This document shows, piece after piece, positions 1 to 1,374 of a stretch of DNA of 10,374 nucleotides. Within the stretch, counting starts at the first letter, position 1, and the number at the start of each line of letters is the position of its first letter. Both the position numbers and the translations under genes were made by a program. The DNA lies in IMG/VR virus record IMGVR_UViG_2778261513_000006, positions 1-10,374 of that record. One strand, written 5' to 3'. The notes under the pieces are model-generated. The model was not told the DNA's origin, made no database searches, and worked only from the letters and a program-made list of their open reading frames with translations. This stretch comes from a virus. Taxonomy: Duplodnaviria > Heunggongvirae > Uroviricota > Caudoviricetes.

Positions 1-1374
1 ATGTTAGTTAGTAAAAGCAACGGATTTAACGCTAGCGCAGTTTTGGGTAGTGGAAGTTATAATGAAAATAAATCTTCTAAACACATGGAGCTACTAGCTC
101 ATAGTATTTTAAAATTAATTTGTAAGGAAGCTGCATCAGAGACGTATCGCGGTGCTCTTGAAACTTTACAAAAAATGATGTCTGAATGTATATATCAAGA
201 AGGCAACGCCTTTGTCATTATGGGAGCTGGAGAACAATTAAAACGTATTAAATATGAAGTTGGTGAAAATAACTTAAAGGTATTCAACGTACACTTTAAT
301 AATAATCACGAGTTAGTTAGTTCTGGTGAGCCTGACGTAATATGTTTAAGCAAGCAGGTCTGGGAAAATCTTCTCATTAAACTAAAGCTGGAAAACAATG
401 AAAATGTGTTTTCTGAAACTAAAAAATTATCGAATAAAAATAATGCCGATCAGTTTTTTGAATGCGCTAAAAGAAATGAACAGAACCTTTTCGATAATAT
501 AAGAAAAAGTGATTTTCATGTTGGTTTACTTAAGCCAAGTAGTACGCGTAGTGTTATTTTAGAAACGCCGCCAAATGTCTGTATGGAATCACGTAATTCA
601 TATGAAAACAAAATAGATGAGATTTCATCTTTGTCAGAGTCAAAGGAACACCCCATAGATATTCAAGAAAAAAAAGATGCGTTTGTGAATGAGTTCAAGG
701 GGATATTATTTGATAAAAATGGAAGGTCTTCAGAGTTTCTACTTAATTTTTATGAATGTTGCTATGAGTTTTTACCAAGAGCGCAGCCTCAGGATAAAAT
801 CGAAAGCTATAATTCAGCACTGCAAGCTTTCTCCATCTTTTGTTCATCTACGTTGATACATAATAATATAGGCTTTGATTTCAAATTATTTCCAGAAGTC
901 AAACTGTGTGGGGAAAATCTTGAAACGGTATTCAAATATAAAAATGGCGATGATGTCCGGGAGATAGCCAAAATTAACATTACTCTCCAAAAAGAAGAGG
1001 ATGGTTTATATAATTTAGGTGGATTGGATTTTAAGGGATGCTTCTTTTCTGGACAGAACTTCAGTAACTATGATATTCAATATGTGAACTGGGGAACGTC
1101 ATTGTTTGATCTTGATACTCCGTGTATTTTTAATGCGCCTGCTTACAACAAGAGTAATGAAAAATCATTAAAACCTGTGAGCGAAAACGGTTTAAGTGGA
1201 GTCTTGACTGATCGTAATAATAAAATAAAACTCATCACGGGCGTGGCACCATTCGATGATATTTTATTTATGGATGATGACTTTGATGATAGTTCCTCTG
1301 AGGATGATCCCGTTGAGAATAGTCCTGTTGTGACTAGTCCCGTTGTATCAAGTTCTAAAAGCAGTTTTCAATGA
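1..1374 (+). CDS. Hypothetical AT-rich protein of unknown function (457 aa as given); short pentapeptide-repeat-like segment and acidic Ser/Pro-rich C-terminal tail; possibly a secreted effector-like protein
   Basis: Long uninterrupted ORF from position 1 to TGA at 1372-1374. ATG at 1-3, but the frame may continue upstream of the window, so the N-terminus is uncertain. Very AT-rich by eye. Protein has a segment resembling pentapeptide/beta-helix repeats (LGGLDFKGCFFSGQNFSNYDIQYVNWGTSLFDLD) and an acidic tail (DDDFDDSSSEDDPVENSPVVTSPVV). No catalytic motif recognised. Confidence 0.5.
   Translation: MLVSKSNGFNASAVLGSGSYNENKSSKHMELLAHSILKLICKEAASETYRGALETLQKMMSECIYQEGNAFVIMGAGEQLKRIKYEVGENNLKVFNVHFNNNHELVSSGEPDVICLSKQVWENLLIKLKLENNENVFSETKKLSNKNNADQFFECAKRNEQNLFDNIRKSDFHVGLLKPSSTRSVILETPPNVCMESRNSYENKIDEISSLSESKEHPIDIQEKKDAFVNEFKGILFDKNGRSSEFLLNFYECCYEFLPRAQPQDKIESYNSALQAFSIFCSSTLIHNNIGFDFKLFPEVKLCGENLETVFKYKNGDDVREIAKINITLQKEEDGLYNLGGLDFKGCFFSGQNFSNYDIQYVNWGTSLFDLDTPCIFNAPAYNKSNEKSLKPVSENGLSGVLTDRNNKIKLITGVAPFDDILFMDDDFDDSSSEDDPVENSPVVTSPVVSSSKSSFQ

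Follow-up and report, generated by a model that had tools for sequence, protein, structure and literature searches.

The DNA studied here, hereafter the window, is a stretch of 10,374 nucleotides (nt) covering positions 1 to 10,374 of IMG/VR virus record IMGVR_UViG_2778261513_000006. Its first open reading frame (ORF), at positions 1-1374, had been described in an original prediction, made from the letters alone, as an unassigned AT-rich gene with effector-like features. With a confidence that falls little short of certainty, we identify this ORF as a complete and intact allele of ypjCB, a catalogued but uncharacterised gene of Escherichia coli that is annotated as two separate fragments, ypjC and ypjB, in strain K-12. 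The gene is already known and, as nothing links it to a secretion system, is better regarded as a catalogued gene than as a new effector. The two features on which this identification turns are as follows.

1..1374, plus strand: coding sequence of ypjCB, intact allele (457 amino acids (aa), 51.6 kDa, pI 4.95), from the ORF listing and the NCBIfam and Pfam matches.
481..483, plus strand: codon 161, CAG (Gln) in the window and TAG in K-12, from the pairwise DNA alignment with strain MG1655.

The ORF begins with ATG at base 1, ends with TGA at 1372-1374 and contains 457 codons, and the longest stop-free run in the remaining five frames of 1-1374 is 86 codons; the chance probability of a 457-codon open frame at the base composition of this segment is approximately 2e-17. 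The encoded protein scored 942.4 bits against the NCBIfam model NF050179 'YpjCB family protein' (cutoff 650), with aa 1-449 aligned to positions 1-465 of the 465-position profile. Two Pfam families were matched in the same frame, PF17612 (DUF5507) by aa 1-160 with E = 7e-110 and PF17621 (DUF5508) by aa 195-457 with E = 1e-177, which correspond to the K-12 genes ypjC and ypjB, respectively. The ORF, for which the original prediction could name no family, is thus a full-length member of the YpjCB family.

Many E. coli chromosomes carry an annotated ypjCB with 100% identity to the ORF. In E. coli cq9, the sequence matching window positions 1-1500 is 100% identical and the annotated coding sequence, WP_000961357.1, begins at the same ATG. 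Extension upstream through this genome revealed an in-frame TAG two codons before the ATG and a Shine-Dalgarno sequence, GAGGAA, approximately 7 nt before it; together with the identical annotated start, these rule out the 5' truncation that had been suspected from the position of the ORF at the edge of the window. The counterpart of ypjCB in O157:H7 strain Sakai is ECs3517, and the public sources name the protein solely 'hypothetical', 'DUF5507' or 'YpjCB'.

The K-12 genes ypjC (b2650) and ypjB (b2649) are the same gene at the same locus, sharing the neighbours ileY, the pinH remnant and ypjA; they differ from the window allele in being annotated as two fragments, whereas the latter encodes one 457-aa protein. 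Over ypjCB, MG1655 and the window share 98.1% DNA identity, and pairwise alignment showed that the only disabling difference in MG1655 is C481T, which converts CAG (Gln161) into a TAG amber codon. The separate annotations of 'ypjC' and 'ypjB' in K-12 therefore result from a single C-to-T change. Amber-suppressor (supE/glnV44) laboratory strains would insert Gln at codon 161, giving the full-length protein. Among the 25 further substitutions between the two sequences, 24 lie at nt 703-1111, a clustering that points to mosaic recombination.

The gene was present in 3,078 of 5,426 complete E. coli genomes (57%), always on the chromosome, and absent from the other 43%. The exact 61-mer with the TAG codon was found in 1,232 of the complete genomes and the window's own exact CAG 61-mer in 340; counted in this way, by exact 61-mer, the amber frequency is a lower bound, at least 1,232 of the 3,078 carriers (~40%). 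The same amber stop occurs in two E. coli species-representative genomes and in Shigella flexneri, whose copy carries a later frameshift in addition, and copies that are truncated or interrupted by an insertion sequence (IS) exist in some genomes. YpjCB proteins fall into length classes of 449, 457 and longer (474-492 aa), with whole-codon insertions or deletions (indels), and for three distinct alleles that are intact the number of contigs carrying each ranges from 494 to more than 1,000. Intact alleles lacking premature stops were present in the genomes analysed of a sequence type 131 (ST131) strain, a blood isolate and a dog isolate, and O157:H7 also carries an intact copy. We also observed that two 4.9-Mb E. 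coli chromosomes mis-filed as plasmids in PLSDB (NZ_CP134663.1 and NZ_CP141089.1) carry ypjCB alleles of 71-73% protein identity, which diverge more than any allele met in the other searches.

Codon comparisons were made among six alleles. Pairwise dN/dS (the ratio of nonsynonymous to synonymous substitution rates) ranged from 0.5 to 0.9 when divergent alleles were compared, the close pair of the window and K-12 giving 0.26. The corresponding polymorphism ratio, pN/pS, differed along the protein: it was 1.05 at aa 1-28, 0.75 at aa 29-128 and 1.0 at aa 129-220 in the N-terminal half, and 0.39 at aa 221-300, 0.76 at aa 301-335, 0.35 at aa 336-376 and 0.45 at aa 377-417 in the C-terminal half, with a value of 1.5 from few sites at aa 418-449. 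For allele pairs separated by 98-178 substitutions, 3.6-6.8 stop codons would be expected at random and none was seen, the probability of no stop ranging from <0.001 to 0.023; each indel among the five intact alleles of the codon alignment spans a whole number of codons. As judged from these comparisons, constraint appears weak, yet the frame appears to be maintained by selection in a protein that evolves fast.

To the extent that sequence searches can tell, ypjCB is a strict orphan restricted to Escherichia and Shigella. A profile built from 15 alleles was scored against 1.84 billion (1.84e9) cluster representatives, standing for ~15 billion proteins, and recovered one full-length cluster (75% identity), one cluster of YpjB length and short fragments, with no homologue beyond Escherichia/Shigella. 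The sole match outside the family was a 3,960-aa MBG-repeat adhesin (E = 1.7e-8), in which 13 identical copies of the unit SGLSNYSISYVNAPTGL were set against SGQNFSNYDIQYVNWGTSL; this E-value arises because the 13 identical repeats add up a weak, motif-level resemblance, and we rejected the match as homology. Among 185,579 GTDB species-representative genomes, scanned with two short peptide patterns that detect close relatives only, ypjCB was found in E. coli and S. flexneri and on one contaminant contig, the 2.8-kb DEQI01000374.1 in the metagenome-assembled genome (MAG) 'Planococcaceae bacterium UBA3370'. This contig encodes YpjCB at 97% identity and is almost certainly E. coli contamination of the MAG bin.

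Searches aimed at known structures and functions gave a similar picture. Sequence and profile searches of the PDB with YpjCB returned no match. With a predicted model of the C-terminal domain (see below) as the query, Foldseek found nothing in the PDB at E <=1e-3, with query TM-scores <=0.23, and nothing among the viral folds of BFVD, so that the predicted C-terminal fold is without a counterpart among these solved or viral structures. No beta-helix or pentapeptide protein was among the listed fold-search matches or was found by sequence search. None of the defence hidden Markov models of PADLOC-DB 2.0 matched YpjCB at E up to 0.1 (0 families), no nuclease, NTPase, protease or pore-forming signature was found for it in Pfam, and a scan of the window with Rfam found nothing. 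The match in PHROGs is an unannotated family that holds this very protein. Sub-threshold Pfam matches to Ku_PK_bind (E = 0.02) and Bromo_TP lie in biased sequence and were not used. A match to ABC-3C CTD4 was likewise set aside: it was obtained only with the distant allele P0121 (E = 8.5e-4, 19.3 bits against a cutoff of 27.6), falls in biased sequence and was not seen for the window protein.

The original prediction was right about the composition of the ORF, as far as it went. The gene is indeed strongly AT-rich, with a guanine-plus-cytosine (GC) content of 0.342 overall and 0.29 at third codon positions, against 0.427 for the whole window and ~0.51 (about 50%) for the E. coli host. The protein consists of 10.7% Ser, 9.6% Asn, 8.8% Glu, 8.3% Lys and 6.8% Phe (35% FYMINK and 15% GARP residues), so that the reported richness in Asn, Lys and Glu holds; the Asn/Lys-rich look largely follows from the AT-rich base composition and is as expected from coding DNA of 34% GC. 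Ten of the 26 Ile codons are the rare AUA (22 per 1000 codons), which the tRNA of the adjacent gene ileY decodes. By alignment, composition and structure prediction with AlphaFold2 (AF2), the protein can be divided into the following parts.

1..84, plus strand: first 28 residues, polar and rich in Ser, Asn and Gly, which differ between alleles (composition, pN/pS of 1.05 and low AF2 confidence).
85..384, plus strand: N-terminal conserved module, aa 29-128, with a predicted alpha-alpha-beta4-alpha arrangement (invariant alignment blocks and a low-confidence full-length model).
385..660, plus strand: variable linker, aa 129-220 (alignments and pN/pS of 1.0).
661..1125, plus strand: C-terminal conserved module, aa 221-375, predicted as three helices, a three-stranded antiparallel sheet and a short solenoid-like coil (AF2 domain model).
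1009..1113, plus strand: pentapeptide-like run of 7 pentads, aa 337-371 (periodicity test, conservation and AF2).
1243..1371, plus strand: acidic/hydrophobic and then Ser/Pro-rich tail, aa 415-457 (composition and conservation).

Within the first 30 residues there are 7 Ser, 4 Asn and just 2 acidic residues. In other alleles the linker has a 25-aa duplication or a 35-aa insertion, each of whole codons. The acidic, Ser/Pro-rich C-terminal tail noticed earlier is borne out, with 11 acidic residues, 1 basic residue, 10 Ser and 4 Pro in aa 415-457; its core, VAPFDDILFMDDDFDD, is conserved and its extreme end differs between alleles. Residues invariant in a 15-sequence alignment include the Cys and His residues C41, C63, H173, C194, H217, C253, C254, C347 and C375. 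The protein has a pI of 4.95 and a maximum 19-residue hydropathy of 0.87, and the hydropathy scan of YpjCB found neither a membrane segment nor a hydrophobic, signal-like stretch at the N-terminus. A published listing of ypjB as a 'membrane protein' (PMC7414163) finds no support in this profile, in which no segment exceeds 0.87 and the N-terminus is not signal-like.

The run at aa 337-371 reads YNLGG LDFKG CFFSG QNFSN YDIQY VNWGT SLFDL, with a hydrophobic centre in 7 consecutive pentads, a pattern matched by 264 of 5000 shuffles. A combined score for the hydrophobic centre and D/N at position 2, which was defined after the run had been seen, reached 11 of 12 and was equalled in 0 of 5000 shuffles. 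The run is nearly invariant in the 15-sequence alignment, where positions 340, 360 and 371 vary, and is at least 90% conserved at most positions among 61 sequences. The five-residue periodicity that the original prediction had likened to pentapeptide or beta-helix repeats is thus real over 7 pentads, whereas membership of the known repeat families is not borne out by the Pfam models (PF00805, PF13576 and PF13599), the best of which, Pentapeptide_3, scored 9.8 bits against 27 (E = 1.3), the others being unreported at E up to 10. Compared with pentapeptide-repeat proteins such as PipB2, EspX, NleL/SopA, Qnr and MfpA, YpjCB shares the periodicity, the mostly Phe centre and the preceding D/N, but differs in having just 7 pentads that are sub-threshold in Pfam and in that the rest of the protein is unrelated. 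The full-length AF2 prediction from 15 sequences was unusable, with a predicted local distance difference test score (pLDDT) of 38.6. A prediction limited to aa 215-380 and based on 61 sequences gave a best model with a pLDDT of 80.4 and a predicted template modelling score (pTM) of 0.79, the other four models reaching a pLDDT of 49-68; the predicted structure has short beta-bridges approximately every 5 residues through aa 337-371, making fewer than 2 coils.

The synteny of the locus was compared in K-12, O157:H7 (SS17 and Sakai), an ST131 strain, a blood isolate and a dog isolate. The conserved order is glaH, an amylase gene (ygaQ), the tRNA-Ile(CAU) gene ileY, ypjCB, the pinH remnant, a small ORF, ypjA/ehaD, and then ssrA or an ssrA-integrated element. 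The window holds the downstream part of this islet, and ileY is known from identical or related genomes. The features that follow ypjCB in the window are listed below.

1495..1522, unstranded: GC-rich hairpin flanked on each side by a U/T tract, probably an intrinsic terminator that works in both directions (terminator scan and RNA fold).
~1712-1879: remnant of a serine recombinase/invertase gene (pinH), between ypjCB and ypjA.
2287-5070 and 5216-5542: ypjA/ehaD autotransporter adhesin gene, broken (comparison with an intact copy).
5543-5742: ypjA-ssrA spacer with the final ~45 nt of ssrA, 95.6% identical to strain D7.
5872-7413, minus strand: GapS1-family anti-phage protein, 513 aa, GC 0.35 (NCBIfam NF047931, 401.6 bits against a cutoff of 320).
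7407-10171: left end of a P2/186-type prophage, 186-like.
7407-8426, minus strand: prophage integrase.
8430-9068, minus strand: CI repressor.
9179-9421, plus strand: Apl/Cox-like excisionase.
9454-9963, plus strand: CII.
9941-10171, plus strand: Fil.

The hairpin lies approximately 120 nt after the ypjCB stop codon and, in a 76-nt context, folds at -26.3 kcal/mol (z = -3.63), with 0 of 200 shuffles as stable; such a stable hairpin with U-tracts 3' of the stop suggests that ypjCB is a monocistronic unit. The pinH remnant is kept as a pseudogene in every genome examined, a hint of an origin of the islet from an old mobile element. In the window, ypjA has suffered an internal deletion of ~1.3 kb with a 13-nt overlap at the junction; what remains is a passenger pseudogene with AIDA repeats and, apart from it, a beta-barrel fragment of 108 aa. 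The segment at 5543-5742 is probably an attachment-site copy from a prophage integrated in the transfer-messenger RNA gene. The GapS1 gene is placed between the prophage integrase and this attachment site, and PADLOC-DB 2.0 (2023) holds no GapS1 model.

Just 52 complete genomes have 80% or more of the arrangement of the whole window in common with it. The ileY-ssrA interval is a hotspot of integration and defence, in which ypjCB-ypjA is elsewhere replaced by IS elements with a type I restriction-modification (R-M) system or by a CP4-like island with Ag43 and CbtA/YeeU; P4-like satellites are also seen there in other strains. Around half of the complete genomes are without the ileY flanks and match only a second tRNA-Ile copy at 96% identity. 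As a side observation, ileY appears to be co-variable with ypjCB, and the islet, in which AUA makes up 10 of the 26 Ile codons of ypjCB, seems to bring its own AUA-decoding tRNA. The idea that ypjCB itself is mobile cargo was considered and rejected: no match was found in 50,697 phage records, and the four 'plasmid' matches are three mis-filed chromosomes of 4.8-4.9 Mb and one partial fragment on a 245-kb record.

What has been published on regulation and phenotype concerns K-12. The ileY-ypjC spacer was found by genomic systematic evolution of ligands by exponential enrichment (SELEX) to hold a sigma-70 promoter and was flagged as an H-NS target (PMC3946193), and Hha binds the ypjC region, Hha overproduction having induced ypjC ~9-fold (PMC2408971). 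Deletion of ypjC in K-12 allowed a pathogen to colonise a commensal biofilm more, and colonisation was not significantly altered by constitutive expression of ypjC (PMC3646849); the deletion phenotype could stem from a polar effect on ypjA. With H-NS/Hha-silenced AT-rich genes beside tRNAs, ypjCB shares its 34% GC, its tRNA neighbour, the H-NS flag and Hha binding in K-12 and its use of the rare AUA codon, although this is a regulatory and evolutionary class, not a function, and the binding is known for the K-12 allele only. The original prediction that the gene looks horizontally acquired and not like a housekeeping gene is thus well founded: its GC content is 34%, against that of the host, it occurs in 57% of genomes and in Escherichia/Shigella only, and in K-12 its promoter region is flagged as an H-NS target and bound by Hha. 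We conclude that ypjCB is a foreign-looking, non-housekeeping accessory gene that is often lost or inactivated.

Taken as a whole, the explanation to which we lean, by a modest degree, is that intact ypjCB is an H-NS-silenced gene for a partner-binding protein of conditional use. Its product would reside in the cytoplasm as a soluble protein of acidic character, built from two small folded modules, a variable linker and an acidic-hydrophobic tail that is conserved, and it would act by binding a partner through the C-terminal module (a predicted helical bundle, beta-meander and pentapeptide-like coil of about two turns) and the VAPFDDILFMDDDFDD tail. Transcription would probably be silenced by H-NS and Hha under ordinary laboratory conditions, the gene being expressed once silencing is relieved; the benefit would be conditional and niche-specific, and the gene dispensable. 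Since no catalytic signature was found, a partner-binding cytoplasmic protein is the most economical reading, and a conditional, niche-specific benefit would explain both the presence of the gene in ~57% of genomes and the nonsense allele in ~40% of carriers. For the narrower proposal that YpjCB is a non-enzymatic binder, conditionally useful and not injectisome-dependent, we would put the chances, as read from the sequence, at even or slightly below.

Several points weigh against this explanation. Its mechanistic part leans on absence of evidence, and the invariant Cys and His residues may leave room for an unrecognised enzyme. The predicted C-domain model is confident in one of the five AF2 models, and the N-terminal module gave no usable model. 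The alleles of the stop-codon test were picked as intact, which introduces an ascertainment bias, and the dN/dS of 0.5-0.9, the common amber, the Shigella frameshift and the IS disruptions would also fit a gene drifting to loss. Moreover, the sole published phenotype (PMC3646849) concerns the truncated allele and was not reversed by ypjC expression.

The most credible of the alternatives considered here, which we nonetheless regard as unlikely, is that ypjCB has no function and is what decay has left of an ancient ileY island, its open frames reflecting recent common ancestry and not selection. Consistent with such decay, dN/dS is 0.5-0.9 overall and the site ratios are ~1 or higher in the linker, the tail and the N-terminal 28 aa; the amber is carried by at least 1,232 of the 3,078 carriers, S. 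flexneri has the amber and a frameshift, and truncated or IS-interrupted copies occur; and the gene, which 43% of genomes lack, has a recombinase pseudogene beside it and, in the window, a broken ypjA. A decaying gene is harder to reconcile with the lack of any stop across 98-178 substitutions, when 3.6-6.8 would be expected (P <0.001 to 0.023), with the whole-codon indels and long invariant blocks, with a pN/pS of 0.35-0.45 at aa 221-300 and 336-417, and with three intact alleles each on 494 to more than 1,000 contigs. A different alternative takes up the effector-like features, and would make YpjCB a type III substrate, of the locus of enterocyte effacement (LEE) or the cryptic E. coli type III secretion system 2 (ETT2), or an otherwise secreted, host-acting effector. 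The polar, Ser/Asn-rich and substitution-tolerant N-terminus with few acidic residues is compatible in composition with a secretion signal, the gene is AT-rich, the protein has a short pentapeptide-like run and an acidic, Ser-rich tail, and O157:H7 retains an intact allele (ECs3517). The effectors PipB2, EspX and NleL/SopA contain pentapeptide repeats, and the effector-like genes espX, espY and espL are located in the E. coli backbone of LEE-negative strains. With the non-LEE type III effectors of enterohaemorrhagic and enteropathogenic E. coli, YpjCB shares AT-richness, a polar Ser-rich N-terminus, low-confidence and probably disordered segments and the intact O157:H7 copy; it differs from them in not being borne on a prophage or an island with effectors, in occurring mostly in LEE-negative strains and in having no homology to their families. 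Exhaustive sequence and fold searches found no similarity to an effector family, and the pentapeptide Pfam models fail. The locus ileY-ypjA-ssrA belongs to no prophage, secretion locus or exchangeable effector locus and has no adjacent chaperone gene, and in the genomes compared there was no linkage to an injectisome or effector locus, the association for which the original prediction had proposed a search. The LEE ATPase gene escN is present in 697 genomes against 3,078 of 5,426 for ypjCB, so that at least 77% of carriers are without the LEE injectisome, and intact alleles occur in the ST131, blood-isolate and dog-isolate genomes. No report of ECs3517, as an effector or otherwise, was found in the searchable literature. 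We consider a secreted effector improbable, and the original suggestion of effector or toxin-like cargo finds no support, there being no effector, toxin or defence homology by sequence or fold, a fixed chromosomal site and at least 77% of carriers without escN.

Comparably improbable, in our estimate, is a single-gene conflict protein (anti-phage, anti-plasmid, abortive infection or toxin) kept in a chromosomal hotspot. The ileY-ssrA hotspot with its type I R-M system, CbtA/YeeU toxin-antitoxin system and P4-like satellites, the 186-like prophage with GapS1 in the window, the presence/absence polymorphism, the mosaic alleles and the fast evolution of the protein would all suit such a role, as would the weak, sub-threshold ABC-3C CTD4 match of allele P0121 (E = 8.5e-4). 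That match is not seen for the window protein and lies in compositionally biased sequence, however, and neither a PADLOC match nor a nuclease, NTPase, protease or pore-forming Pfam signature was found; no neighbouring gene is an antitoxin or immunity gene, and ypjCB is not carried by the mobile elements themselves. A bona fide pentapeptide-repeat DNA mimic in the manner of Qnr and MfpA would account for the 7 periodic pentads with their mostly Phe centre and D/N at position 2, for the predicted beta-bridges approximately every 5 residues and for the acidity of the protein; given how short and sub-threshold the run is, we hold this to be very improbable. Considered in general terms, a lineage-restricted protein with an unseen fold, kept by wild E. 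coli for an antagonistic or host-facing role, whether as a single-gene conflict protein or as an unrecognised factor that is secreted or translocated, strikes us as a long shot. Were it true, the function would be invisible in K-12 owing to the amber allele of the reference strain, and the fast evolution, the mosaic alleles, the near-invariant solenoid-like motif and the acidic tail would mark an arms-race interaction surface.

For E. coli biology, the main practical value of the finding is annotation clean-up, in that what was taken for an 'unassigned effector-like ORF' proves to be a y-gene pair of K-12 in its intact form, and work on ypjC or ypjB in K-12 is work on fragments of one gene. 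If a function were found, it would add to what is known of functionally unassigned E. coli genes and might bring a new fold to light; the data hold no pointer to a new kind of system. As it stands, ypjCB offers a clean example of a taxonomically restricted gene whose frame appears to be kept by selection while its sequence evolves fast.

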